DNA of 63,941 nucleotides, counting the filler. It is 15 parts of 15 records of this genome, joined end to end, with 100 filler letters (N's around TTAATTAATTAA, not from the genome) between each part and the next. Parts side by side here need not be neighbours in the genome. Positions count along the whole stretch, not along the records: positions 13,994 to 23,482 come from SRR15195285_6624; 14 more parts are not named here. One strand, 5' to 3'. Every line of letters starts with the position of its first letter. The first letter of the stretch is position 1. The notes beneath the pieces are model-generated. The model saw nothing but the letters and a program-made list of their open reading frames with translations, was not told the DNA's origin and made no database searches. Shown here in pieces: positions 13,834 to 38,000 of the stretch. The position numbers and the translations under genes were made by a program.

Positions 13834-14185
13834 TCAAATGAGTGCGCCTTGGAGCAAGAGTGTTTGAGGTAGTGATGCAAGGTGGGACTGCATNNNNNNN
13901 NNNNNNNNNNNNNNNNNNNNNNNNNNNNNNNNNNNNNTTAATTAATTAANNNNNNNNNNNNNNNNNNNNNNNNNNNNNNNNNNNNNNNNNNNNGATAGAA
14001 TCAGATAAGTCGATTTGGATTTTTGGGCCCGGGTGGGGTTGGCTGTCCCAGAACCCCCCCCCCTTTATATCTATTAAATGAACCGCGTACGCAAGGGAAG
14101 AGCTCTCTTGATGGAATTGGGCGAGAAAGCAGCCATTCATTTCCAATTTGTACACTCAGGCTTTTGCATGCATGTTCGACAGCCT

Positions 14186-17100
14186 CTACGGCCTTGCGCC
14201 AAGTTGCTCCACAGTAGTGCTATCAGGGAGCAAGTCCTCTTCGCCGTTTTCTTCCCTTGTTTCTTCAACATTTTGGTCTTGTCCTCCGGTTTCCAAATCC
14301 ATGGACTTCATCGATGCGACGCCAAAGTAGTTAACGAATTCGTCAAAATCAATCTCTTCGTCACCGTCAGTGTCCATGCTCTGAAACATGCGACCAGCCT
14401 CGAAAACCCGCTCATCGTCAGTTTCGCCATGCAGACCGAGCATGTGTCCGAGGTCACGGTCTTGGCGTATCGCACTCATGATCTCGTCACGAGTGATGCC
14501 TCCGTCTCCATTGGCGTCCACTCTAGCGAACGCGTTGCGGAGCTGCTCGACATCCTCCTGACTTAGGGCAGAGCTTCGGCCGTCTTTTGGCACCCACACG
14601 GCCCGTGGCGTTTGGATGCTGGCCCTGCTGTCAATGTTGCTATCGCCTCTGGTGCTGCGACGCAGCGTACGTTCTACTTCTGACATCTGTGCGTGTAGCT
14701 CACCTTTTGATGCATCCAAGCCGACTGGCTTGGAGATGATGTTGGGCAGTACAAGGCTCAACGCAAGACCAACAGCATTGGTAGAGGTTTTCGTTGCCTG
14801 CGCAACAGCGGCTGACACTGTGGCATCAACGTGACCGCCAAGGTCCTCCATCATAGGTTTCGCAGTGGCAAAATCGTACACAAGCTTGTCGTGTTCAGCC
14901 ATTGACTTGGTTAGCACGACAGGTACAATAGGCACCTGGTGAGTAGTTGCAGTATAGAGCCGGGACAAACACCGCGATTCTTTCATCACGTTTGCCGACT
15001 GTACTAAAAGCACGCAGTCTGACTCTTCAGCAATTGGTACAAGATCCGCTGGAGTGACATCGTTGATATCTCGTGTGCGGCCGCTGCACGTGTCAATCTG
15101 TAGCACGACCTGGTCCTCGTTGAGCTTCGTGTTATCCAGCAGCCACTGCCTAATCTTCGCTGCCTGGGCTACAATCGTGGGGTTCTGCTCTTCATGAATG
15201 ATGGAAACTGCATGCTTCAGCACTACTGGCCACGGATCAGCTTCGATGGGCTTCACATTGTCCAGTAACGATGCGTTTTCCGGGCACGCTTTGTTGACCA
15301 GTGCAGCTGCCACCTGGCGGATCTGGTTTTGCAAGATCACGACGCTTTGGTGCGGATCAAACGATATCACGTCGTCTTTGCTCAGGCGTATGGCTGACTT
15401 GATCTGAGGTCCCAAAGTGTTGGCAGAGTAATTGAACGCCCGAAGAGTTTCTTCGGCCATTGGATTCGTTTTTGCTAGATACCCGGAAAGATCGTCGAGG
15501 ATGGTTGAAATCTCATCGATGTTGCCAGCAAATGCATTGGCCACACGCATCACAATGATAGGCACGTCGTATTCCACTGCCGTGGCTACCTCAAGCAGAC
15601 ACCAGGGTCGACTAAGGATAGCTTTTGTATACATCAAAATGAGCGCGTCCGAGGTCTTAACACAGTTCAAAAGCTCTCGGAGATCAGTCAGATTGTCTGC
15701 ATCAAGGAATATCTGATCTTCTCTGGTGCGCAGGCCGCGAACAAGCTCAGATTTGAGGACGCGCGCTTCAGCTGCCGCCTCGTTCTTGAAATGAGACAGG
15801 AATGCCGCATACGTTTTCTCCACATACCAGCCATCCACGTACCGCTTCAAGTCGAGCCGGTCGGTGTCGGTTGCAAGGCCAAGAGACTGTAGGTCAAACG
15901 AAAGCTTGCGCTGCTGGTTGATATCATTCGAGCGCTCTTGTCGATTGAGGACCTCTTGCACGTAGCGAAGCTTTGAAATGACAGCAACCAACGCAGCTCC
16001 GGGAACCAACACAATAAATGAAATGAACAATATCATGTCATAGACATCAACGCCAATGATCTCCCAAGAAAGATCATTTTTCAGAACGATCGCCGTCGTA
16101 ATTACCTACGGAGCAACAATTGATGGTTCACCAGGCGCGACAAGTCCAGTTAGTTCTGACTGCCAAGCAACCTGCATGTCTATGCAACCTTGTTGACCTC
16201 CTGTGTATCACAAAAATGACAGACAAGCGACAGCAAAAGATGAAAGCATTGAGGCTTCACAAGACGTACGATGAAGACATGCATCTCCGTCGTCGCTCGC
16301 AGTACATTGTCTTGAACGATCTTGTACGGCCATGTATACATTTGCAGTGCGAAAAATCCAAAGCTAAGCGTAATGGCACAGGAAAGCTGAGCAACGCTTC
16401 CTCGGCCAACCATTAGCACGAGCCCAACCAGTGCTAGCTTGCGCAGCATATCAAGACTCTCCTGTTCGACGGAGCACAAAGATGAAACACGTGAGCATGT
16501 GATCAATTGCTTAAACGGCTCGGGGGCATGTGGTACCTACCCAGTACAGATAGTCCGGCACGTATGCGTCCATCAAAAACGAATAGCTGCGGCCAATTGT
16601 GACGTCACGGATGACGTATTCTGCTGTCTTCTGTTCGACGCCAAGTTCCGTGGCCATGCGCTGAGCCATCTCTTTGTTCTTCAGTGCGCTGTCACGCTGG
16701 TAGGCACGAGCAGCACTGATCAGCACGTATCCCATCAGAATCGGCAGCCCGACTGCCACAACTGCAATCACGGCAGCTGACAGTGCCTTCAACGCCTGGT
16801 GACTCGGATCCTCGCAGAAGACAGCATCATCAGCGTCGAGTACACTCATCCCAGGCCTCAGTGTGCGGCAAATGAATGTGGCAAATGAGATGATGCAAAT
16901 CGTTGGATCTGCGCAACAATTCAGCGTTTCCTCTCATGATCAAACTATGAATGGGTGCTACAACTGATTGTCTGATTGCATTGTTGGAAGCGTACAGCAG
17001 AAAAAGATTCCGAAGAAAATATGACTCTTGGCGTTGGTATTTGCCTTGGAGACTCCGTTTTTATGTCGATCATAGATGTAGTAGCATAAAATGATCGTTG

Positions 17101-20100
17101 CAATCATGCCAGGCAGTCCAACCACGCGTAACAGCCACCTGCTGGTGAAGCCCTTGAGGCCGAAACACTCACTGGGACCGAGAGCGCGGAATAATAGTCC
17201 CCACAGGTCCATTACTGGCTTCAAAGCCGCAATCACATCCTGCTCACAGTACCAACACAGGCGTGTCAGATGAAATGACATGAAATGCGTGTGTAATGAC
17301 TTCCACTTTACGAACAGGACAGGCCAGGCCATGGCAAGACAAGACTCACGCCAAACAGTCCCGGGTACTGGAAGTCTAACACGTCGCCGAGCTGACTGGT
17401 GATCTGCGAGTAGGTGATCAAGATGCGCCCAGGTTGGAATGCGCAGCGCGCCAAATGTTTCAGCGAGAAGGCTTTCCACAGCGATGCCATGATCGCACCA
17501 CCAACAAAGATGGCCAAAAGAATACCAACCAGGACCAGCATGGACTGCTTTGTATAGCCTGTGCCCTCGCACGGTTCACACTCGCGTGATGGTGACATTC
17601 CGTAGCCGTTTACGCAACCGTCGCAGACCTGTCCCTCGTAGCCGTGTGCACACACGCCTGGCACAGCATTGGCCGGGCATCGTTTCCGAGCCAAGTCCAT
17701 GTCGTTGTGACACCGAAATACAATCAGTGCACCTTCGTCAACCTCAAAGTCTGCTTGTGCTAATCTGCGCCTGCTGGCCTGTAGTTGTAACTGTGGAATT
17801 GTGAACCCCGCACTGACCACAGGATCTGCTCCGTCCTTGCACATGACACACCCTTCACCGGTAATATCTGTTGGACAGGATGCACAGCTCTGTCCAGTGG
17901 CGGCAATCGCAGCAGACTGTGACCCTATTTGGCGGGAATAATAGTCAGGGTCGAATGATCCATGAAAACACACGACGTTTGCTTTCGTCGCATTGAAATA
18001 GGTTTGCTCGCAACCACATTGTTGAGATTGTGGACCAGCACTAAGTTTACGTGTTCTATGTACACCACAGTCTTCGCAGCGCTGGTACGATTCGTCCGCA
18101 ACGAGCGTCGAAGGGCAGGGAAGACACACGCCAAACGACGAGTGATTGTTACCATTGCAGCTATCACAGCCATCTTGATCGGAATTAGGTCCAGTGCCTG
18201 CTGGGCAAAGTATGCAGTCGATGCCATCTTCGTTGAATGTCTTCTCAGGGCAGTGGCTGCATGAAAGAGAGTACTGGGCGTACGTACACGCTTCGCCACC
18301 TTTGCATGGATGCTCTGTACAGGCACCACGCAGCTGACCATTTCGTGAGCCGGGACTGATCATGATGCTTTCTCCGTCAATATACGGCTCGTATGTTGTA
18401 TCTTTGGCTTTAATTACGTCTGGCTTTTCGATCCACATGGCGTCGGCGCAGCGAGGGCACAGTCTCGTCGTGACACCGTCCTCGTCCTCGGTTGTTATAC
18501 TATTGCTTGGCAACGTAGAATTTTCAACAAACGTTGATGACTCTAGTGTCAGCACCGCGCCAGCTCCTAGGATCGGACTAATCAGATGATCAGACACGTG
18601 GTTCTTTTCAAGCTGCGATGTGGTGAGCGTTATAATGCTGTTGAAAGATATGATTGCTCCTGCCACAGTCTCTCCACTACCCATGTTCGTTCCGAATGCA
18701 GTATTTTCGGCGGCAACCGATGAGCTGTCAGATATGAAAAGTGCACCAGCTGTGGCTCTGGCACTGGCTCCAGCGTTTGATATAAAGCTTGAGTGGAATA
18801 TGGAGGCAGAGCTTCTGGCAATGAGCAAGGCTCCAGCAGCTTCACCCCTATTGTCAGAAAACATTGTGTTGACAATTGTACCAACCGCTCCCTTGATGAG
18901 AGACACAGCAGCACTCGCAGGCTGATAGGAATTTACGTTTCCGGCGTCGTTTGCCCGCACGACACTATTAGCAAGATGCAGCGTTGACTCAGACACAACG
19001 AGCGCAGCGGCTCCTTGGTTGTTGGCGAACCGACTGTGCAAAATTTCAGCGCTGGACCCGTCGTCACAAACAATCCCTGAACCAGAAACAATTTCGGGAA
19101 AGTGGATTTCGCCGAGACGCATTGGCGGGGGCTCGGTGTAAGAAGTAACTTCCACACTGTTGTCTTCAACCCGCACATGCCATAAAAATATTGTCGAACT
19201 CCGCGCATACAGTGCTGCAGAACCAAGCGTCTGCACGCTGTTGTCCAGCATTTCCGTGAACGATAGTGATACATTCGAGTCTCGAGCGTATAGTGCTCCT
19301 GCGCCTACAGCTTTCTGTGTGTTTCCACTGAACCTTGAGTACGTAATGTTAAGCGTACAGCGTACGCATGACAACCCAGCCGAATGGCCAAGACCACCTC
19401 CTCCTTCCGCTTCGCCGCCATCTATGTCGACATTCCGAAGGAAAACAGATGCGTCGGTCACCGTATGCTCTGCCCGAATTGACCTCGAATCAAGCGTAGT
19501 AGCACACGGAAACCCACAAATGTAAGGCTTCAGGAGTTCACACTCTGAGTCCTTCCACGCAGAGTTCCAGTTGTGCGTTTCTACGGTTGTATCTACGTCG
19601 ACGCAATTCTCTGTGCCCCAATCATCGTTACAGCTCGTACCAGACACGCCACAGTCGGACTTGCACTCCTCTACGGGCACTCCACAACCCCAGGAATCTG
19701 GCTGCAGTGCCCTCCAAGGCCAAAACGTGGAATTCTGTATTACGCCACCCCCCACCCACGACCAACCAGGATTCTGGCTATTGCGACTACACTGTTGTGT
19801 AACCACGTCACAAGTGGCACGTTCCCCGGTCATTGTGATCGATTCATCCTTCGGTACGTCAGCAAAGGTCCCGTCGCATCCCATTTCGTAGTCCAGATCG
19901 TTCAAACCAATCCAGGCCCCGCTCCTTTCCTCGTGAACCTCATGAATATTTACGAGCTCTTCGAAGTTCAAAAGAGAAGCGAGGTGGCCTCCTCGTGATA
20001 CACACTCTGCTTCAGCTTCGTGCCATGTCTTCCTTTCCCGATCGTACTCAACGTTGCAGTGCGCGGCTGTGTCTGTGTCGCTGCAAGGATACCCGCAAAA

Positions 20101-23100
20101 GAATGCGCGGAGCTCATCACAAGGTGTATCATGAAGCATGCCGTGCTCTGGACCGAGGGTGTGGTCTTTCCAAGCACCAACACAATCCTCCTGCAAAGTA
20201 CCAAGAGACTGGCAGTCTCTCAAAAAGCACCTCTCAATCTCTTTGCACCCGAAGCTGTCAGGTTGTCCTTCTGCAAATGCAGAGAAATCTGAAGTGACTC
20301 CATCGGACCAAGAAAACGCTGACGAGTCACAGGCTGCCTCGGAGCTCCTGTCATTCAATCCAATCCAAGCTGACGTCGCTGCAGGAACTATGTCTCTGAA
20401 AAAAAAGTAAGGATGACGGGGCCCGCCAGGCCAATGCACCGCCGCTAGATGTCCTCCAAGAGAAGCGCAGTCTGCCTCTGCATCTAACCAAGTTCGCTTG
20501 ATTGGCACATAGTCGTAGCGGCAGTCTGCAGAACCTGCACCTAACATGTGCTGGAGTGATGGTCCAACGATCAGAACGTTTCTTTGATTGGCCAGCGCGT
20601 CAGATAAGCTGGAACGATCTGTTCTTCCATTGGTCGGGAAGGAGCGCCAGTGATCATGCATGCCGTTGAATGCAACGCATAGCGGGGGCACTGGCACCGG
20701 TGTGGCGACACCAGTACACGTCTGTGGTACTTCGAATGCTACACCCGTACAGGACTCGGCTCCAGGAGTCTGGTCATGCGTACATCCGGACGGACAGTCG
20801 CCCGTAGCGGAGAAGCTGCACTCAGGCAAAAAAGCCGCTGTGTAGCTGCATCCATCTGGACACACCGAGGACTCATCAGTCGACGGGTCCAGGTCACAAG
20901 ACGGTGCATGCGTCACAACAGATGCCCTACTCATCAAAATAGCACAATCATAGACGCAGCTGGATGCTTCCATGACAACTGCACTTGGGCTGTAGTTCAT
21001 GGCCATTGGATCTGTGCATCCTGATGGAAGTGTGACGCCACCATCCCGCGCGTTGGTCAAGCAAGTGAATATGGCGGCTGAATCAGGAATACCGTCAGCC
21101 GGTCGATCTGGTGATGCCAAAGACGTGACAAATTCATCTAGGCATCCGTCTATCAGCGAGCAGGCAGCCCATTCTTGCGGACATAGCGCTGATGCAGACG
21201 AGGATGTAACGGTTGGAATACATGAAGAAGCACCGGGTGGACAGGTTGGACAATCGGAGCAGACCAGACATTCGGTGGCGCCAGTGTCCGCAGCAAATTT
21301 ACCTGATGGGCACAGGGTACATGGAGTTGCCGCATTAGAGTCGTCGTCGAAGGACCCAGGCGGACACGGCTCACACGAAGATCCATCGGACGAGTAGGAA
21401 CCATAATCGCAGGTCTCGCTGCATGTTGTGGAGCCTGCTGTGCTAAAGGTACCTTCCGCACAATTTACGCAGGGAGTCGATGAGAGTGAGTCATGGTCAA
21501 CGAATCCGGCATCACACGAAATGCAGGCCGTTGCGCCAGAGGCAGAGTACTTGCCCTCAGCGCAGGCACTGCACGAAGACTGGTCATCCTCACTTGTGAA
21601 AGTCCCGGCGGCACAGAGCGTGCACCGTCCAGTTGTGCCATCCACAAAATGTCCAGCTGTACACAGTGTTGGCACGCAGCACTCGCTTGCTGCACTGGCA
21701 CCAATCGGAATCAACGTGGGCAGTTGAACATTGTTGTCGGTCAGGGTAGTGCCACAGAGTAACGAATCGCCAGTGCACATGTCAGGCGTCTGAGTGGCGG
21801 AACCATAGCAGGCAGCAGTTTCTGATGCTTCACCTGTGCATGACGCAGGGATCTCTGTAGCGTTACCAGTGCATTCCTCGGCGCCAACGGTACCAATATC
21901 TGTGCATCCTGCTGGGCATCCGGTGAAAGTTTCGCTGTCTGCGAAAGAGCAAGTGGGTGTTTCTGCGGCTGTAAATGCGCAGCCTGCCGGGCAGCCAGTT
22001 GCAGGATTCAAGTCCTCGCCGCCCTCAGTAGCGTCATCGAGATCGCACGTTGGCACGAAGGTTTGTTCGAATGTGCAGCCAGCCGGGCACTCACCCGTCT
22101 CGTCAGTGTCTGGATCTGTGTCGCAAGTTGGAGTTGATGCAGGTGTGCTGGTACACTCACTAGGGCAGTCAGAGCACGAATTTGACAGCAGCCACGTTGC
22201 ACAGGAGTCTTCGCAACACAGATCTTGCACTGGTGCAGTATAGATGCACTTCTGAGCTGTGCACGCGTCACCATTGCTGTCTATATCTAGTGCAGCGTCG
22301 CAATCAGCCTGTGATGCCAAGGCACAACTGCCCGGGCTCCCACTGCCAGGGGCTGCCGTCAATACACAGTCCAGACTGTTGGGGCACTCTGTCGCAGCAG
22401 CAGCAGGTGGGTCGCAAGCAATTGATATATCCTTCGCTGTACAAGAGCGCTCAGGCCCTGATGGCAGCAATATGCTAGCAGCATCCTTCCGTAAGGTTGT
22501 TCCAGTTTCACATGCCACCGTAGAGCAAGATAGCTTCTCTGGAATTTGGAAAACGGCGTTCTTCATGGTACAAAACGCTGCCTGTTCGGAATTATGCCCG
22601 CAAAAGTCAATCTGAATCGGTTCAAAATTCAGAAATCCAGGCACAGGAATGGGTTCTTGTGACCATGTGCCGTCAGGATGTGTTACTCCTATTCCCAGGT
22701 TATCCCCTCCGCCGCCCTCGGCATGGACCGCAGCGAAAAAGTAGTACTTTGAACTGTCCAATGTAATCGGCTGTGAAGTTTGCTCCGAAAACTTGTCCCA
22801 CTGTCGCGGGTCTGTCCAGCCAGGGACGTGCGCAATCTCACGTGCTTCTTCTTCTGTCTCGCCAAACCAAAGGTGACTCCAGTCATCACCGTAGATGTGG
22901 AAAATATGTTCACCTGCTTGCGACGGACTGAACCAGCCAAATAGCCTTGAGCCGTAGTTGTCGCCGGTATCAACGGGAATCTCGGCAAATTCAGTAATGA
23001 AATCGCGCGAATCAGGTTGATCGGGAAACGAGGCCAATCCCCACAGCCAATCTGTTTTCATTGGCTGCGCTCCAGGAGGTGGCTTTGTCCATCTGTCCCA

Positions 23101-23481
23101 TGTAATGTAGGATCTGTCGGCGGCCCCGCCGGCGTGGTCGCCATAGCTGTTTCCGCAGTAGCACTCGTCCATTCCCTGCAGACCCATGTACGAAAAGCCC
23201 TGACAAAGATCTTCGCATGTTGTAATTGACGCGCTTGAGCCCATGGAGTGTCGAGAACCAGACAAGTCTCGTGCCAGGTCGAATGCTTCCTGGTCTGGGT
23301 AGAACCCGATGAAGACTCTTTCTTTGCAATCATCGACCGATTTCGACGCAGGGTAGGAAACACTCCCAGGTGGACAGGGCGTGCATGCTGCTGCACCACT
23401 GGACGCAAAGGTGCTTTCGGGGCAAGGGGTGCAAGGGACATTCATAGCTGGCTGGATTCCCGAGCCATCAGGGTTGTAAAA
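14186..23481 (-). CDS. Giant multi-pass receptor (5' truncated, >2950 aa): GCC2/3-type Cys repeats, WSC, PA14, 2 C-type lectins, beta-helix, about 9 TM, TIR, degenerate TIR, EF-hand pair. Exons 23481-17350, 17239-16996, 16908-16541, 16461-16270, 16105-14186
   Basis: Four GT-AG introns (17240-17349, 16909-16995, 16462-16540, 16106-16269) join five ORF pieces in frame, giving FQYPGLFG|DVIAAL, FFC(Y)PTICII, YLYW|ESLDMLRK and HVFI|VITTAI. Domain motifs are given in the findings. Confidence 0.88.
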
Positions 23482-23844
23482 TNNNNNNNNNNNNNNNNNN
23501 NNNNNNNNNNNNNNNNNNNNNNNNNNTTAATTAATTAANNNNNNNNNNNNNNNNNNNNNNNNNNNNNNNNNNNNNNNNNNNNTTTACGGTCACTACAACC
23601 TGGGCACTTGACCCCGGTCGGGATTTGCACATCGGGTCCTTAGACCTGAGTATACCGCGCGCGCCGGGTCTGTGCGAGCAGGCCGGCGGGTGTAAGGCGT
23701 TCGTCAGAGCAAATCAGCAAGCGCAGCTTAAAGCTGCTACCAGCTACTAATCGCACTCTGTAGTAGGACTCGTGCCGCGGCAGGGTGGTCAGCCACAGCA
23801 CGCACCAGTGCTGGGCGCAGCTGCTCGCTGGCTCAACCGGCGCG

Positions 23845-26775
23845 ATGACGCGGCTCGCCACCTGCGTGTCATGCGCCGCAGCCCTCGCGGCGTCAGCTGC
23901 CGCGCTCGACAACGGCCGCGGCATCACGCCGCCGCGCGGGTGGCGGTCATGGTAATAATCCCCACTTGCGTTTCTCCACAAATCCCTCTCCTAACAGGCT
24001 GGGTTGGATTTGTTGGGGGTACAGAGAACCCACTGATAAATCGTGTGATCAGCTCGAGTGCTGCTTGTTTTCGCACGCAGGGACGCCTTTGAGAACAGTG
24101 TGAACCAGACGCTGCAGATGCGGCAGGTCGATATGCTGGTCGACCGCAGCCGCAGTGTGGATGGCACGGCCACTAGCCTGCTGGACCTGGGCTACAACCG
24201 CATCGGCCTGGACGATGCGTGGCAGGACTGCGGCAAGGGCGTGAACCACAGCTTTCACGACCCGAGTGGCAAGCCACTCATCCGGCCGGACCGCTTTCCC
24301 GACATGGCTGCGATGAACGCCTACGCCAAGTCCAAAGGCATCGGCAGTGGCTGGTACCTCAACACATGCGACTGCTGCGAGAAGGGCGCGCTCCAGCCGA
24401 TGTGGTCCGCCGCGGGAGACGCCAAGGCCGTCAAGGACCTGGGGTTCGACGGACTCAAGCTAGACTCCTGCGGTCCCTCGCAGGAGCTCAGCGAGTGGGT
24501 TCGGCTGCTCAACGCCACTGGCAACCACGTGCTGGTCGAGAACTGCTTCGACAACTCCTCCTACCCACGGACCAAGTCCGGGGTCGACGACGGCGAGGAA
24601 GCCGTGACAGAGGAAGACTGCCCGATGAACATGTTCCGGAGCGGTGGGGACATGCGCGCCGATTGGCCGCTTATGCTGCGGCGCTTGCAGACGATCGTGC
24701 CGTGGCTCGGGCTCAGCCGCCCGAAGTGCTGGGCCTATTTGGACATGCTCGAGGTAGGGAACCCACCAGGTGGGACTGGAGAGTCGCCCTTGTTCGAGAA
24801 CCCACACTCCTGGCGAGCACACTTTGGTGCGTGGCTGATCAATTCGTCACCCTTGATTCTCAGCTTCGATTTGGCCAATGCGACCAAGCTAAACCTCACC
24901 TGGGATTTCATCACGAACCGAGAGGCACTCAAGATCAACTCTGGTAAGTCAAGTACACATCATCTATGTCGATGCGTTCACGCTGCACCAGACCTTACCT
25001 TGCAGTTCTACGTGTGGTTCTCAGCTGACCCACCCGACTACCTAACTCCCTTCCCTTCGCCCAATCTGTCTGCTCCGTGCACTGCGCTGGACGTTGATCT
25101 GCTCGTCTGCTTCGCAGACTGGGCCGGTAGTGCCGGCCGTCTCGTGACGTCCATCTACGACCAGAGCGCACCCACTCCCGTCTTCGCACGGCCGTGCTCC
25201 CACACGGTTGATACACAGAAGTTCGCTCTCTCACCAACGGGCCAGCTCAAGTCGATGAGCAAGGGAGATGATCGCTGCATCTCGGTCCCTGGCTGCCCTC
25301 CCTCCCCGTCACCCTCGCTGGGCTCCGCGGGTGGGCGGCGTCCGCATGTCTCAATGCTGTCGGGACGGGAGCGCAGCACTGTCAGGCTAGGCAATGGCGG
25401 CATCGCACTTGCGACGTGCGATGGCTCGCCCTCACAGCAGTGGAATTTCACTGGTGATCCTGCCGCGGTGACGGACGTCCAGACGCTCGTCCCCAGTGCA
25501 GGAGGAAAACCTGGAGGCTGCTGGGAGATCAACGGTTGTGGTGCGAAAACGATCTTTGCACTTTGTTTTCCTCAGTATGTTTTACCAAGACTGGCTCGAG
25601 ATACATAGATAAAATCAAACAAAGGACCGTGCTCTCAGGTGGCTCATCGATTGACACTGACTATGGATGCAAGTCGCTCCCAACCGGCCCAAGGCCGTGG
25701 AAAGGCTGCAATAATATGGCTTGGACCTTTACCAAGAACGGCACTGTTATCTCAGGCATGGAAGGTTCGGACGGTAAGGACGAGTGCCTTCAGGTCTCCT
25801 CGAAGGATGAGAGTACTATTGTGGTCGGCCCTTGCTTGGGTGCATTACGCGAGCAGTGGAAGATCAATGGTACGCATCTTTGTCGTTCGTGTGCATCCTG
25901 CCCATGGAGAGCTGGCTGACATGTCGAATGCACATTCAGGCAAATGGCTGACTGTCTCACTGATCTGCTGCAATTGCGATAATGCAGGTACGGAAATTCA
26001 GTCGGCGTTCGGTGGCTGCATTGACAACCACGCGACAAAGCCCGCCAATCCCCAATACGGGCCGCTCGTAGTCGCCCCTTGCGATGAGTCCGCTTGTGGT
26101 GGGAGGGATCATGAGTGGCGATGGAACTCTACGACGCAGCAGCTGATCAGTGCAGTGCCGGGTATGGGCGAGGATATATGTGTTGAGAGCCAAGGATACG
26201 GCAACCACTACGCCACTCTCAACGGGGTCGGCTGCGTCTCTCGAGCAGCAGATATCCCACGCGCCCAGCAATTCAGAATCGACACAGAGAAGCATCGGGT
26301 TTCTGTCGACGTGCGTTTTAATCAAACCGAAACAGGCAGGGACGTGGGCATGCTCCTCTGTGCGGATATTGACTTCTCAGCACCGCAGAGCGGCGTGGCA
26401 CAGCCGGGGTGTCGGCTGATCGCCCAAGTATTTGCTAAGAAAGTCAGCGGAGGTGCGATTGCAGTTCTGTTTCTTAACGCCGACACGAACAAAACACAGG
26501 ACCTCAGCGTCGACCTAGCTGATCTAGGCTTTGCAACAGCATCAGCGGAGAGAGCAAGAGGTGGGAGTGTGGGTGGGTTGACAGTGCGTGACGTGTGGGA
26601 GAAAAAGGATGCAGGTAGCATTGCAAGCGCTAGTGGGAACTTCACAGCCCACGCGATCCCGCCTCAGGATTCCAAGCTGATGCTGTTTACACCCTCAGCA
26701 GCGTCGCCCTTTCTGCAGCAGCAGGCGACGACAGCGCTTGCGGCTGGATTCTCGGTGTCGTCTGCTGAGAAGTGA
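23845..26775 (+). CDS. Secreted GH27 alpha-galactosidase/alpha-GalNAcase with inserted ricin-B modules. Exons 23845-23951, 24081-24943, 25118-25540, 25639-25869, 25988-26775
   Basis: Signal peptide then LDNGRGITPPRGWRSW; GLDDAWQ; DRFPDM; nucleophile motif GLKLDSC; acid/base motif FRSGGDM; WAYLDMLEVG; HFGAWLINSSPLILS; C-terminal beta-sandwich (AVLFLN, VRDVW). QxW-type ricin repeats lie in between. Confidence 0.9.
25541..25638 (+). mobile_element. Candidate introner (transposon-derived spliceosomal intron)
   Basis: 98-nt GT-AG intron with GGTG duplicated across both junctions and imperfect terminal inverted repeats (GTGCGAAAACGATCTTTG / CAAAGGACCGTGCTCTCAG). Confidence 0.55.
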
Positions 26776-34787: not shown

Positions 34788-37700
34788 ATGCCCGCCGAGG
34801 GGACTCCGCCTGCGCCCCCACCGGTAACGCCGGTGAAGCTGGGCGAGCCGGTAGAGGCGGTCACGGAGTCGCCGAGGACGCCGAATTCCAAGTTGGCTGA
34901 TGAGATCTCGCAAGCGAAAGCGAAGCAGTTGATCAAGAAGGTGAAGTTGGCGCATCAAAATCGCCATGAGGTCGAGGAGGAGAGGCAGCACCATCAGGAG
35001 AACAAGGAGTTCGCCAAGCACGACGAAAACGCCGCGTTCGGCTCGCGCGCCGTGGGCGGCTCCAGACCAAACGACGAGGTGCTGTACGGGAAGGCCGAGT
35101 CAACTGACTACCTGACTCCGGACACGCCGCAAGAAGAGTCCTTCCAGCGTACGTTCACCCCAGCCATGCGGACCAGGCGCCGACTCTACATCTGGGGGCT
35201 GTACTTGTGCCTGGGTGTCGCGGTGGCAGCGGAGATCATCGTCATTCTCGGCCTGTGCGAGGTGATCCAGAAGGTTCGCGTGAAAGCAACGAACACCCAA
35301 CTGGAGAGCAACGAACTGCTGATGGCGTGGGTGGTGTGGACCGGCTCGAGCATGGCGCTGTGCTTGGTCGCGTGCGTCCTAGTGTTGTGGCAACCTGCAG
35401 CGGCCTCGTCGGGTATCCCAGGCCTCATCGCGTACCTGAATGGGGTCACTCCGGTCGGGGGCACCTCGCCCCTGACGGGGAAGAAGACGGGCTTCCTGTC
35501 CTTTCAAACCCTAATTGCGAAGTCGGTTGGGATGACTCTCTCCATTCCCTCCGGCCTATGCCTGGGGCCGGAAGGACCGATCATTCATATCGGAGCGCTG
35601 CTGGCGCACCACACCACGGCCTTTTTCGAGACTCTTTCGCACAAGCTACTTCCCGAACGGCTCCACTTCTCTGTCCAGTCTGGAGAGGGCCGCGATTTCC
35701 TTGCGACCGGTGCAGCGGTGGGCATCTGCGTGGCTTTCCGCGCCCCGCTGGCCGGCTGCTTGTTTGTCGTCGAGGAAGCCTCGTCGTTCTTCACGACGGA
35801 GCACCTGGAGTACACCTTCTTCGCGACGGTCGTTGCCTACATGGTCGCGCTTGCCCTGGCGCGGCCCGAGGATAACTTCACAAAGTTCAAGCAGGCCACG
35901 GGCTACTTCTGCACGCAGTTCGATTGGTTTGACATGTAAGCCTCGCATGCAGCCTGTCACCTGCCGACTTGCACATCAGAGTCAACCACCGCAGGTTGCT
36001 GTTGTACACACATGCAGATGATGTACTCATCGCGCGCTGCTGCATCGCAGGATACTCTTCGTTGTGGTCGCGGTGGTAGGCGGGATGGCAGGGGCTTTGT
36101 TCAACCATATCGTCGAGTCGCTAAACCACTTGCGGGCGCACCATATCAACGCACACATGTGGAGGCGTGTAGCGGAGGTGGTGATTTTGGTCTTGGTAAC
36201 AGGCACGGTCGCCGTTTTCCTTCCGTACTGGTTCGACTGCGAGACTCCGACACGCTCAATGCTCATGGAGGACTCGATCGGATGCCTGTCCGAAGAGGAC
36301 GCCCACATGATTTCACAGGGTTCGATATCTCATCCAGTTTTGACTAGCTTGCTTGCAAATTGCAGCGGGGATGGCACAGCCGAGATCAGCGAGAAACTTT
36401 TAAAATTCCGAGCGCCTGACAGCGCGTGGAGCGAGGATGGACACGAGTGGAAGGACTTTGTCTGGGTGGACAACGCCGATGAGAACCCGACTATCCAGCT
36501 GCACTACCAGCACAGCTATAATTGTCCCGACAGGAACGACTACAACGCGATGTCAATGCTGTGGCTGAACGGTGGGGTGAAAGGCGTCAAGGTGCTCCTG
36601 CAGCGCGGATTCCCTCACATGTTGAGCTGGCAAGTGCTCCTCGTCTTCTTCGCGGTCTATTTCGTATTCGCCGCGTACACCTCTGGTGTCGCCGTTCCTG
36701 CGGGCCTGATTGTCCCCCACCTGCTCATCGGCGGCTCTTACGGCCGCGCGATCGGCTTGCTCGGCATTTACCAGAAGAAAGCGATGTGCTCGGCGCTCAT
36801 AGACCTGGAAAACAAGGCTGCCACCGGTGGCTTAAACCTGAACGCCGCGGACTACGGCGGAGAAGACTGGATGTTCGACGACACTTACTTTTGGTCGACT
36901 GTGTATCGTTGGGCCGGACGAGACTGCCATTTGCCTGACCCAGGAATGTATGCTGTGGTTGGCTGCGCTGCATTCTTGAGCGGCTCGGGGCGCATTACCA
37001 TGATGCTTGCCACAGTGATTATCGAGCTCACCGATGATGCCAGCCTGATCGGCCCTGTTGGTGTTGCGAGCATCATCGCTATGATTGTGGGCAACCTGTT
37101 CAATCACGGTCTCTACCATGGCCTGATCCCAGTGATGAACATGCCGTTCCTCAATGAGCAGCCTGCAGACGTGATGAATCTCATCAGCGTCTCAGATATC
37201 ATGACACGCGACGTAATCTGCCTGCCAAAGATGGCGCCACCGGCTCTTGTTGACGAGATTATCGCCAAGCACGACAGTGGGGAGATGGCACACAACGCGT
37301 TCCCCGTGATTGACAAATGGGACCCTAAAAAGCCGGACCAGCTGAGCGGCAAAAAGCTGCGCGGCATCATCTCGATACAGAACCTGCGATTAGCTGCAAA
37401 CTGTGAGAAAACAGTGAATTCTGATACCAACAGTCGCAGATCTCGCTTCGTGAAAGGCACCCAGTTGAACATCAAGTTTAGCCCCGTGCAACTCCCTGGC
37501 GCTGCATTAGTGAGCTCAGACTTTGAGGGGTTGACTGAAGAGCATCACTCGATCGACCGAGATCTACAGGATGAACTGCTGTCCTGGCTGATCCACGTGC
37601 CACTTTTGCACGACCTGCGCAACGCGGTGCTCAAACGTATGCTTGCCCGGATGCACGTCGGCGACGTGAAGCCGCACGAGGACGTCATTCACGTTGGCGA

Positions 37701-38000
37701 GCCTGGTCACGCGATGTACTTCTTGGAATCTGGCTCTGCCGAGGCGCTCGTGCGAGAAAAAGTAGTGAAGACGTACGGCAGGGGCGAGTTCTTTGGTGAG
37801 TTGGCGTTAATTACGGACGAGCCTCGTAAGGCAACTGTCCGCGCTGGCAAGGACGGCGCGCGCGTGTGGAGGCTGGAGAAGCTAGTGTTTCAGGACACCC
37901 TGGACATGGACCGAGAGCTCAAGCTGTTGAACTTTGCCGACAGGTCACCCATCACTGTGGTGCCGCACACGAAAGTCGCCCGCGCATTCGGCATCTTCCG
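34788..38000 (+). CDS. CLC chloride/proton antiporter (CLC-6/7-like) with CBS1, cNMP-binding domain and start of CBS2; 3' truncated. Exons 34788-35935, 36051-38000
   Basis: AASSGIPG, GPEGPIIH, FRAPLAGCLFVVEE, VPAGLIVP, GLYH; CBS HNAFPV...LRGII; cNMP GEFFGELALITDEPRKATV. Intron 35936-36050 joins FD-M-ILFVV in frame. Confidence 0.92.

Follow-up and report, generated by a model that had tools for sequence, protein, structure and literature searches.

A putative surface receptor of a marine protist combining lectin domains, a nine-helix membrane domain, tandem TIR domains and EF-hands

The contig described here carries what we read as a genuine gene from the nuclear genome of a marine protist with flagella. 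Its product, longer than 2951 amino acids, would be a surface receptor in which a lectin-rich ectodomain is followed by a PF06011-type membrane domain and by a tail with two TIR domains and EF-hands, such that signalling through Ca2+ and TIR NADase activity would be gated by ligand or force. We give this reading as a whole about an even chance, its functional side being a proposal. TIR domains are enzymes in bacteria, plants, some animals and some protists; to our knowledge, the way in which a eukaryotic surface receptor switches on a TIR enzyme is understood only for single-pass receptors.

Gene model of the locus

The window, that is, the whole stretch of DNA analysed (63,941 nucleotides, filler included), consists of 15 contigs joined by N44-TTAATTAATTAA-N44 spacers. 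The receptor gene lies on the minus strand within one of these contigs (Table 1), where five ORFs are joined by four GT-AG introns. The spliced coding sequence, taken from a splice model that was read and then checked by script, comprises 8856 nt and encodes 2951 amino acids, with one stop codon only, the terminal one. The 5' end is open: the reading frame reaches the contig end at 23482, and the N-terminus, with the start codon and the signal peptide region, lies off the contig. The closest full-length relative found is about 1170 residues longer and has a signal-peptide-like start.

Table 1. Coordinates of the gene, its exons and introns, and the encoded domains in the window; amino acid (aa) numbers refer to the partial spliced model.
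Feature	Position	Strand	Description
Contig with the whole partial gene	13994..23482	.	about 9.5 kb; spacers N44-TTAATTAATTAA-N44 on both sides
Exon 1	17350..23481	-	aa 1-2044; full ectodomain, TM1, TM2, start of first outer loop
Intron 1	17240..17349	-	110 nt, GTGAGT..CAG, phase 0; junction without gap against 5 uninterrupted homologues
Exon 2	16996..17239	-	helices of outer loop, TM3, first part of TM4
Intron 2	16909..16995	-	87 nt, GTACGC..CAG, phase 1; interruption at the same place in 3/3 related metagenome loci
Exon 3	16541..16908	-	remaining TM4, outer beta-hairpin, TM5, cytosolic loop
Intron 3	16462..16540	-	79 nt, GTAGGT..CAG, phase 0; interruption at the same place in 3/3 related loci
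Exon 4	16270..16461	-	TM6, TM7, start of TM8
Intron 4	16106..16269	-	164 nt, GTACGT..TAG, phase 0; alignment junction gap-free
Exon 5	14186..16105	-	coding 16105-14189 plus stop codon 14186-14188; end of TM8, TM9, TIR1, TIR2, EF-hand pair
WSC	23125..23271	-	aa 71-119; Pfam PF01822, E 4.7e-8, 33.6 bits vs cut-off 27.8
PA14-like region	22684..22944	-	aa 180-266; sub-threshold GLEYA PF10528 match only, E 0.0011, 19.6 bits vs 26.2
Ephrin-receptor-like Cys-rich repeat block	21202..21744	-	about aa 580-760; Pfam PF07699, E 6.5e-6 and 1.5e-5 on segments
C-type lectin domain 1	20095..20499	-	aa 995-1129; Pfam PF00059; QPD aa 1073, WKD aa 1104
C-type lectin domain 2	19462..20034	-	about aa 1150-1340; Pfam PF00059; QPD aa 1260, WKD aa 1309
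Right-handed beta-helix	18517..19080	-	aa 1468-1655; Pfam PF13229, E 3e-11
Nine-helix membrane domain	15944..17550	-	aa 1978-2366, split by four introns; helix positions taken from the P0015 model (residues 272-736)
TIR1	15326..15823	-	about aa 2407-2572; Pfam TIR_2; Glu 2484 encoded at 15590-15592
TIR2	14666..15208	-	about aa 2612-2792; TIR_2 E 0.073 only; Arg at the Glu position
EF-hand pair	14324..14548	-	aa 2832-2906; Pfam EF-hand_7, E 1.8e-11; loops 14483-14518 and 14339-14374

The first-pass annotation had proposed that four GT-AG introns fuse separate ORFs into one protein of more than 2950 amino acids, and the comparison with homologues agrees with it. The spliced model aligned with the uninterrupted proteins P0003, P0009, P0014, P0015, and P0016 in single HSPs of about 1090 amino acids at 44-49% identity, and all four exon junctions were free of gaps in these alignments. 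P0170 was 66% identical to the model over 925 columns, sharing the order of membrane helices, TIR, TIR, and EF-hand, and P0198 (3610 aa) was 41% identical over 1886 columns, from the C-type lectin domains through TIR2. In all three related metagenome loci, the conserved blocks are separated by frame changes or stop codons where introns 2 and 3 lie, and many database fragments start or stop at exon junctions. The four sequencing runs compared with the locus are genomic DNA and retain the introns; the search for RNA runs or transcripts found none. The alignment to homologues and the interrupted metagenome loci support the splice model, and with it one gene rather than several.

A public gene call starts the TIR/EF-hand ORF at Met24 of exon 5, and protein entry P0017, of 616 aa, is identical to residues 24-639 of that exon; the region could accordingly be divided into two or more genes, the introns being nothing but intergenic spacers. 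We consider this very improbable in view of the colinear, gap-free alignment over the four junctions to uninterrupted proteins. Moreover, the supposed spacers measure 79-164 nt, have GT..AG ends and restore the frame exactly, and exon 5 opens at an acceptor site inside helix TM8 of the conserved nine-helix fold. Even less credible is that the assembly has produced a chimera here, or that the locus is a pseudogene undergoing decay. The assembly is fragmented, with window contigs of 3-9.5 kb; however, 2951 codons run without a stop, and independent marine metagenome contigs, 99-100% identical to the window, extend over its exon-intron junctions: there are 5 differences from X1 record 3 over 16801-17600 and none from X1 record 2 over 15940-16412. 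P0198 and P0170, which come from other assemblies, keep the common domain order.

Ectodomain and membrane domain

Cys-rich repeats, WSC, PA14, two C-type lectins and a beta-helix had been listed for the ectodomain. Pfam recovered all of these with the exception of PA14, for which the scan of segments gave a GLEYA match that did not reach the profile cut-off, such that the PA14 resemblance is kept as a lead. Additional copies of Ephrin_rec_like, the Pfam family formerly named GCC2_GCC3, were found at aa 13-52 and adjacent to the membrane, and in a PDB search the family profile (A1) matched Mst1 and ELAPOR1 in their Cys-rich repeats. The Lectin_C profile was matched by two stretches of the protein (E 5e-16). 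C-type lectin domains that bind carbohydrate in a Ca2+-dependent manner have an EPN or QPD motif plus a WND motif; in both domains of the window protein QPD is present, and WND, canonical for the Ca2+/sugar site, is replaced by WKD. Judged by sequence, the modules of the ectodomain are of types that usually bind carbohydrate or cell-surface polymers, and they are spaced by the ephrin-receptor-like repeats.

The AlphaFold model of the homologous membrane domain of P0015 (pLDDT 86.9, pTM 0.85) has nine long helices, in keeping with the roughly nine hydrophobic helices first annotated. The distribution of Lys and Arg in the loops follows a positive-inside pattern that fits an N-out/C-in orientation, and Cys content is 6.8% in the N-terminal (outside) part vs 1.0% in the C-terminal (inside) part. 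Since the homologue models have nine membrane helices, the ectodomain would face the side opposite to the TIRs; the N-out/C-in topology is thus a prediction, and it is the arrangement that had been supposed for lectins and TIRs.

A resemblance of this region to the Flc/Pkd2 proteins had also been suggested. Weak co-linear matches to PF06011 were found in five of five full homologues, and 14 of the 40 family members matched it at E<=0.01 (best 8e-6); the matches span profile positions ~160-400 of 426 and are co-linear with TM5-TM9. P0200, 41% identical to the membrane domain of the window over 433 columns, scored 30.3 bits vs the curated cut-off of 28.5. In the exon-by-exon Pfam scan, PF06011 did not match the membrane region of the window itself, the domain being split by four introns, and both the PF06011 and the structural results refer to homologues 41-66% identical, not to the spliced chain of the window. 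None of the solved structures searched resembled the membrane domain (best Z 7.5, best Foldseek E 0.15). Through its relatives, the domain is supported as a divergent member of PF06011, the fungal Flc/Pkd2 "TRP" family. The channel activity of PF06011 proteins is debated. For S. pombe Pkd2, Ca2+ permeability upon membrane stretch is described in PMC9727806.

TIR domains and EF-hands of the tail

TIR_2 (PF13676) matched exon 5 by a small margin, with 30.0 bits vs a cut-off of 28 (E 8e-7), and 13 of the 40 homologues matched it at E<=0.01; sequence profile searches of the PDB reached TIRs only at E 0.05-0.8. The folds were measured on the AlphaFold model of P0170, 66% identical to the window protein. 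In this model, TIR1 aligned with the human SARM1 TIR with a Z of 16.2 and an rmsd of 2.1 A over 128 residues at 22-23% identity, and TIR2 with the TIRs of plant RUN1 and RPV1 with Z values of 14.8-15.1 (15.1 for RUN1). The two TIR folds of the first-pass annotation are therefore borne out in the model, and its EF-hand pair by the EF-hand_7 match.

Catalytic TIRs have their glutamate on helix alpha-C. The column of the putative catalytic residue of TIR1 has Glu in 49 of 51 aligned sequences. In the window this is Glu 2484, within WCLLE, which we take to be the WCxxE equivalent of SARM1 E642 or RPS4 E88; in the adaptor TIRs TRAM and MAL the aligned residue is Gln. Some TIRs long regarded as pure adaptors also carry Glu there, so the residue is not proof of catalysis by TIR1. 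The corresponding column of TIR2 has Glu in only 3 of 55 aligned sequences. Taken together, the conserved Glu and the SARM1-like fold of the modelled domain point to NADase activity of TIR1. As for the EF-hands, the canonical 12-residue pattern D-x-[DN]-x-D-G-x-I-x-x-x-E is followed by the loop at aa 2842-2853, and position 6 of the loop at aa 2890-2901 is Glu. Five TIR-bearing homologues are devoid of the pair, so that Ca2+ sensing does not appear to be essential to the family.

The closest fold match of TIR1, SARM1, is an NAD+-depleting executioner, and PMC12489294 discusses depletion of NAD+ as a strategy of algae against viruses. The same receptor might then employ TIR1 as a suicide effector, as in abortive infection, and not as a maker of second messenger, with the EF-hands setting the threshold. 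We find this unlikely: the active protist TIRs tested so far (4 of 29) made cADPR, according to bioRxiv 10.64898/2026.04.20.719644, and no sequence feature separates depletion from signalling.

Relatives, known systems and possible function

In relatives, the common membrane module is joined to other outputs, namely ART and WD40 in P0177, a cNMP-binding domain in P0176, and ankyrin plus kinase in P0200, and their ectodomains include Peripla_BP_6, LRR_5, Recep_L, CUB and EGF. This reuse points to a modular receptor family, and because the relatives carry other inputs and outputs on it, the membrane module may be seen as a general transducer chassis. More tentatively, we propose an undescribed eukaryotic receptor superfamily in which a nine-helix transducer of PF06011 type, perhaps working as a Ca2+ channel, would carry interchangeable ectodomains (lectin, beta-helix, LRR, Peripla_BP, CUB, EGF) and interchangeable outputs, the NAD+-consuming TIR and ART among them. 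Its TIR-EF-hand members would then be one surface-to-second-messenger device, combining channel Ca2+ with a TIR-made ADPR-type messenger, for prey, viruses or pathogens.

Among known systems, the Flc/Pkd2/TrpR proteins of PF06011 are those to which the nine-helix domain would be a divergent relative. Fungal members have an N-terminal ML-like lipid-binding domain, which was not among the Pfam matches of the window segments or the homologues. Unlike them, the window protein has a giant lectin-rich ectodomain and a TIR+TIR+EF-hand tail, and such a tail was not found in eight papers mentioning PF06011. With SARM1 and the plant TIR-NLRs it shares the TIRs: TIR1 has the SARM1-like fold with the WCxxE Glu kept, and TIR2 is like those of RUN1/RPV1. 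It differs from them in having neither ARM/SAM nor NB-ARC/LRR, in tethering its TIRs to a multi-pass domain, and in placing them in tandem, one with the Glu and one without it.

Polycystin-1 and the sea-urchin REJ receptors are likewise giant multi-pass proteins with WSC and C-type lectin modules in the ectodomain, and are coupled to Ca2+ entry; we know of no TIR in polycystins. The combination of WSC, C-type lectin and a multi-pass TRP-named domain recalls the ectodomain logic of these receptors. It is possible, if somewhat doubtful, that the window protein is of this adhesion or mechanosensory kind and not immune: the ectodomain would fasten the cell to its own coat or scales, to a substrate or to prey, force would be reported as Ca2+ entry by the PF06011 domain, and TIRs and EF-hands would be scaffold or housekeeping regulators, of phagocytosis or motility for example, with no NAD+-derived immune signalling. 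The kinase, cNMP-binding and WD40 outputs of the relatives are general signalling modules, as this would have it. Pkd2 of S. pombe, a PF06011 protein, is stretch-responsive (PMC9727806), and Dictyostelium needs TirA to grow on live bacteria, a finding cited by bioRxiv 10.64898/2026.04.20.719644. However, the near-invariant Glu of TIR1 (49/51) and a fold nearest to the NADase SARM1 argue for retained catalysis, ART, a second NAD+-using enzyme, replaces TIR in relatives, and neither PKD repeats nor REJ, GPS, PLAT or PKD_channel domains were among the Pfam matches of the window protein.

The Toll-like and IL-1 receptors have the same general plan, with recognition outside the cell, anchoring in the membrane and a TIR in the cytosol. 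These receptors are single-pass proteins with LRR or Ig ectodomains (PMC7075850), whereas the window protein has nine helices, two TIRs and EF-hands, and no LRR or Ig domain according to Pfam; the label of non-Toll, given at first for the contrast with single-pass LRR/Ig-TIR receptors, is thus well placed. A receptor-like membrane TIR in a unicellular eukaryote is, as a general idea, not without precedent: it was published in 2025 for the haptophyte G. huxleyi. PMC12489294 describes TIR proteins in which an extracellular leucine-binding-like and EGF-like region, or several TM helices, precedes the intracellular TIR, which has an RPS4-like fold and retains the conserved Glu. It presents the membrane TIR genes as responding early to virus infection, and the data that it reports on them are those of expression. 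By description, both cases are membrane TIRs of unicellular marine eukaryotes; in addition, relatives of the window protein carry Peripla_BP_6 and EGF ectodomains, and the Atlas clusters nearest to it are mostly haptophyte.

Returning to the receptor with Ca2+ and TIR signalling, its operation may be pictured as follows. A polymeric ligand, borne by prey, a virus, a pathogen or the coat of the cell itself, or else force on the ectodomain, would alter the conformation of the nine-helix domain or the way it clusters. This domain, by analogy with S. pombe Pkd2, may pass Ca2+. Local Ca2+ would act on the EF-hands, and TIR1 would meet TIR2 or the TIRs of neighbouring receptors. NAD+ would then be cleaved by TIR1, and the resulting ADPR-type messenger, or the drop in NAD+, would elicit a defence or feeding response.

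What sets this protein apart is how its parts are wired: the ectodomain is of lectin type, the nine-helix domain is channel-like, the conserved Glu is present in one TIR and absent from the other, and Ca2+ sensors are built in. If active, it would link TIR chemistry and Ca2+ signalling in a single polypeptide, and would provide a function for the poorly understood PF06011 "TRP-like" family. It would also represent an innate-recognition system for marine protists, organisms that occur in abundance, have for the most part not been cultured, and on which viruses and grazers exert heavy pressure. Should the superfamily reading prove true, these proteins would be the protist counterpart of the TLR and receptor-kinase repertoires.

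Gene structure and surrounding contigs

The gene occupies the minus strand of a single contig (13994-23482) and is made up of five successive stop-to-stop ORFs. The exon junctions were read directly in the sequence and then verified by script; splicing of the four introns (see table) joins the ORFs exactly in frame, such that 8856 nt yield 2951 aa with a single terminal stop. As the reading frame is still open at the contig end (23482), the N-terminus is missing, and residue numbers follow this partial model. A public gene call of 616 aa (P0017) corresponds to exon 5 from Met24 (14189-16036, minus strand) with 100% identity. It gives the picture of separate ORFs from which the first-pass annotation set out. 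We rejected exon 5 as a stand-alone protein, as this call is an ORF-caller artefact that conceals the receptor architecture.

The database relatives bear directly on whether the ORFs belong together. The juxtamembrane part of exon 1 used as query retrieved 16 relatives of 1149-2995 aa. P0003, P0009, P0014, P0015, and P0016 each match the spliced model in one HSP of about 1090 residues (44-49% identity), running from aa 1721 to about aa 2795 without a gap at any of the four junctions. The 942-aa relative P0170 shows 81% identity, free of gaps, over aa 2032-2380, and 66% over 925 columns up to aa 2907, covering both TIRs and the EF-hands, and P0198 (3610 aa) matches at 41% identity in one HSP of 1886 columns that takes in the first C-type lectin at one end and the second TIR at the other. 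Colinear alignment with the five uninterrupted relatives, P0170, and P0198 indicates that the TIR exon is part of the same gene and not a separate one.

A search with the family alignment A4 found three short metagenome loci encoding relatives; none was found with P0014 as query. Frame changes or stop-containing insertions separate the conserved blocks in these loci, and all three carry such an interruption where introns 2 (about aa 2125) and 3 (about aa 2247) would fall. For intron 1, locus L001 runs through uninterrupted and in locus L002 the break lies a few codons upstream; the place of intron 4 is covered by L002 only, with the interruption about nine codons upstream. Among database fragments of the relatives, many terminate at junction 2 or shortly past junction 1, or start at one of junctions 2 and 3, which is what ORF-based gene callers yield on meeting an intron. 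The four GT-AG introns and the protein of more than 2950 aa proposed in the first-pass annotation are thus borne out by the in-frame model, the colinear relatives, the interrupted loci, and the fragment ends, and we consider it very probable that this is one gene with the architecture described here.

A look for RNA runs matching the 9.5-kb contig found none. Introns 1, 2, and 4 are present unspliced, at 99-100% identity and with no joints, in marine metagenome contigs from four runs, which are DNA and hence silent on splicing or expression. Matches at this level indicate that the gene contig exists independently in nature. In run X5, many pieces matching 14000-23480 are only 90-99% alike, with numerous substitutions, the other runs holding near-identical pieces; this suggests related strains or species bearing the same gene.

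The window (1-63941) holds 15 contigs, each of 3.1-9.5 kb, linked through N44-TTAATTAATTAA-N44 spacers. Because the contigs were joined artificially, genes on adjoining contigs are not genomic neighbours and their adjacency is without biological meaning; an alpha-galactosidase gene, for one, sits on the contig placed beside that of the receptor. The other contigs carry ordinary eukaryotic genes, including a gamma-tubulin complex component, a flagellar NYD-SP28/DRC1 protein, and a fusion of a CLC channel with a cNMP-binding domain, from which the source organism is a flagellated eukaryote. No paralogues of the gene were found by tblastn on the remaining 14 contigs of the window.

Features of the gene, of its partial protein model (aa), and of other contigs in the window
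Feature	Position	Strand	Details
Intron 1		minus	110 nt; GTGAGT..CAG
Intron 2		minus	87 nt; GTACGC..CAG
Intron 3		minus	79 nt; GTAGGT..CAG
Intron 4		minus	164 nt; GTACGT..TAG
Ephrin_rec_like repeats	aa 13-52, about aa 610-740, near membrane		Pfam
WSC	aa 71-119		Pfam, 33.6 bits (cut-off 27.8)
GLEYA (PA14-clan)	aa 180-266		sub-threshold, 19.6 bits (cut-off 26.2)
C-type lectin domains, two			Pfam, E 5e-16
Right-handed beta-helix			Pfam, E 3e-11
Nine helices, mapped from P0015 model	aa 1978-2366		predicted
TIR1	about aa 2407-2572		Pfam TIR_2, 30.0 bits (cut-off 28)
Glu 2484 (WCxxE of TIR1)	15590-15592	minus	
TIR2	about aa 2612-2792		Pfam TIR_2, E 0.073 (weak)
EF-hand pair	aa 2832-2906		Pfam, E 1.8e-11
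Open frame, 598 aa	6834-8630	plus	no Pfam family at E<=1e-5
Open frame, 1494 aa	9349-13833	plus	spans entire contig, 5' side open; no Pfam family at E<=1e-5
Alpha-galactosidase (Melibiase_2)	24049-25608	plus	ricin-B lectin match sub-threshold, 27 bits (cut-off 29)
CLC voltage-gated chloride channel and cyclic-nucleotide-binding domain fusion	36022-37998	plus	frame reaches contig end
Open frame, 799 aa	58053-60449	plus	no Pfam family at E<=1e-5

Ectodomain and nine-helix membrane domain

Pfam was scanned on the entire exon and on in-frame segments. From the ectodomain proposed in the first-pass annotation, the cysteine-rich repeats (as Ephrin_rec_like), WSC, the two C-type lectins, and the beta-helix were recovered, but PA14 came down to a sub-threshold GLEYA match. 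In agreement with the repeats, the A1 family profile matched Cys-rich repeat proteins among PDB sequences. The canonical sugar/Ca2+ site of C-type lectin domains is WND; both domains of this protein carry QPD and have WKD in place of WND, and because of this replacement we rate carbohydrate binding by these domains as plausible and not more. The N-terminal 1975 residues contain 134 cysteines (6.8%), versus 1.0% in the C-terminal 591, a contrast that fits an extracellular ectodomain with a cytosolic tail. The relative P0198 has about 1170 extra N-terminal residues, beginning with a hydrophobic, signal-peptide-like stretch.

For the membrane domain we modelled a homologue and not the window's own chain, namely residues 272-736 of P0015 (40-sequence alignment; 57.5% identity to the window's domain). 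The model (pLDDT 86.9, pTM 0.85) shows nine long helices together with a beta-hairpin and some small helices on the outer side, so that the count of about nine hydrophobic helices made at first sight is matched by the prediction. The distribution of Lys and Arg in the loops agrees with an N-out/C-in orientation; this orientation and the odd number of helices place the lectins, by prediction, across the membrane from the TIRs, a topology with which the cysteine contrast is also in keeping.

A search for solved relatives of this domain gave none with Foldseek against the PDB at E<=0.001 (best E 0.15), and VIA-align against 48,161 chains gave none at Z>=8; its best match, at Z 7.5, is at the noise level for helical bundles. 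This absence is no evidence of a new fold. Dimer prediction for the domain scored 0.00, which is no answer and speaks neither for nor against self-association.

Judged from profile matches, the membrane domain appears to be a divergent member of PF06011 ("TRP"), the family to which Flc1-3 of fungi, Pkd2 of S. pombe, and TrpR of A. nidulans belong. Weak co-linear matches to PF06011 appear in all five full homologues (E 0.0077-0.28), and with 14 of 40 family members matching at E<=0.01 (lowest E 8e-6), PF06011 is the Pfam family hit most often. The relative P0180 reaches E 2.3e-4, and P0200, 41% identical to the window's membrane domain over 433 columns, reaches 30.3 bits against a cut-off of 28.5; the protein Atlas neighbours include PF06011-bearing clusters. 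The resemblance to the Flc/Pkd2 membrane region noted earlier is thus upheld through the homologues, but the window's own exons, each scanned singly with Pfam, gave no match to PF06011.

Cytosolic TIR domains and EF-hands

The cytosolic part was likewise modelled on a homologue, P0170 (71-sequence alignment), and not on the window's own chain. The model (pLDDT 86.7, pTM 0.74) has plant TIR domains as its best Foldseek matches in the PDB, and VIA resolves two TIR folds in it: TIR1 (P0170 residues 382-603) superposes on the human SARM1 TIR with Z 16.2 and rmsd 2.1 A over 128 residues at 22% identity, and TIR2 (residues 628-821) on the RUN1 TIR with Z 15.1 and rmsd 2.8 A over 153 residues. In fold, TIR1 is closest to SARM1, and the "second TIR-like domain" of the first-pass annotation is predicted to be a TIR in its own right. 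Sequence searches against the PDB gave less: the single TIR region found one chance-level match, the A1 family profile found the SNC1 TIR at E 0.051, and the TIR1 profile A3 found the TRAM and MAL TIRs only (E 0.055-0.1).

The WCxxE glutamate of TIR1, Glu 2484, is the putative counterpart of the catalytic glutamate in SARM1 and in plant TIRs. Of 51 aligned relatives, 49 have Glu at this position and the other two Asp; in the A3 profile alignment the adaptor TIRs TRAM and MAL have Gln there. The matching column of TIR2 holds Arg in the window protein, and Glu in three of 55 relatives.

The two EF-hands, also foreseen in the first-pass annotation, were recovered as a C-terminal pair with one canonical loop and the other with Glu at loop position 6. 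They are common to P0170, P0018, P0195, P0190, P0183, and P0019, and absent in P0003, P0009, P0014, P0015, and P0016.

A modular family and its possible mode of action

With the membrane domain as query we found 42 relatives, and nine when the search was restricted to longer proteins; they come from marine metagenomes and EukProt single-cell co-assemblies, and the Atlas neighbours are haptophyte for the most part. Exon 5 scanned against 1.84 billion representatives matched 60 proteins at the E<=1e-30 level; the number rises to 577 at E<=1e-10 and to 2101 at E<=0.001, where generic TIR and EF-hand matches are counted in. On the cytosolic side the nine-helix module is followed by TIR, with or without EF-hands, by an NAD:arginine ADP-ribosyltransferase domain (ART; PF01129, E 6.2e-10) and WD40 in P0177, likewise by ART (PF01129/PF03496) and a WD40 propeller in P0179, P0193, and P0194, or by a cNMP-binding domain in P0176; P0193 has an EF-hand pair ahead of the membrane domain. 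P0200 is a receptor-kinase version with DUF285 repeats, the PF06011 domain, ankyrin repeats, and a protein kinase. Ectodomain partners among the relatives are Peripla_BP_6, beta-helix, EGF, LRR_5, Recep_L, and CUB. ART in the place of TIR is a second NAD+-using enzyme, which fits an NAD+-based output.

The architecture of the window protein is thus that of an ectodomain, a multi-pass membrane domain, and TIR and EF-hand domains, with its topology predicted. As to how it may work, a polymeric ligand or force on the ectodomain would alter the nine-helix domain; if this domain behaves as S. pombe Pkd2, in which membrane stretch is reported to bring about Ca2+ permeability (PMC9727806), Ca2+ would enter beside the EF-hands; TIR1 would meet TIR2 or the TIRs of neighbouring receptors and would then cleave NAD+, be it for signalling or for depletion. 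Enzyme activity in protist TIRs is already reported, four of 29 tested having made cADPR (bioRxiv 10.64898/2026.04.20.719644). We consider this receptor-to-TIR mechanism an even bet. The main rival, in which the protein would serve adhesion or mechanosensing in the manner of a polycystin, with no immune signalling, is in our view less probable. The ectodomain logic resembles that of polycystin-1/REJ, but none of the defining domains of those proteins was found. The structural claims of the first-pass annotation hold, and its functional claims are what we reasonably infer.

Compared with known systems, the protein differs from Toll-like receptors in lacking LRRs and in having nine helices and two TIRs, in accordance with the non-Toll character assigned to it, and its membrane domain appears distantly related to the PF06011 proteins; none of the eight open-access papers found to mention that family deals with protist receptors or with fusions to TIR. 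Nor did the open-access papers searched describe any receptor of TRP-like-TIR-EF-hand type, and a 2020 survey of TIR domains does not touch on protists, EF-hands, or ion channels. The nearest published case is that of the virus-responsive membrane TIR genes of G. huxleyi, whose products are described with either several membrane helices or an extracellular region of leucine-binding-like and EGF-like type, ahead of an intracellular TIR with the conserved Glu (PMC12489294); the likeness lies in this described layout. The window protein appears to be a receptor whose output is TIR and whose multi-pass chassis is new, equipped with Ca2+ sensors and tandem TIRs, and to belong to a modular family that appears undescribed.
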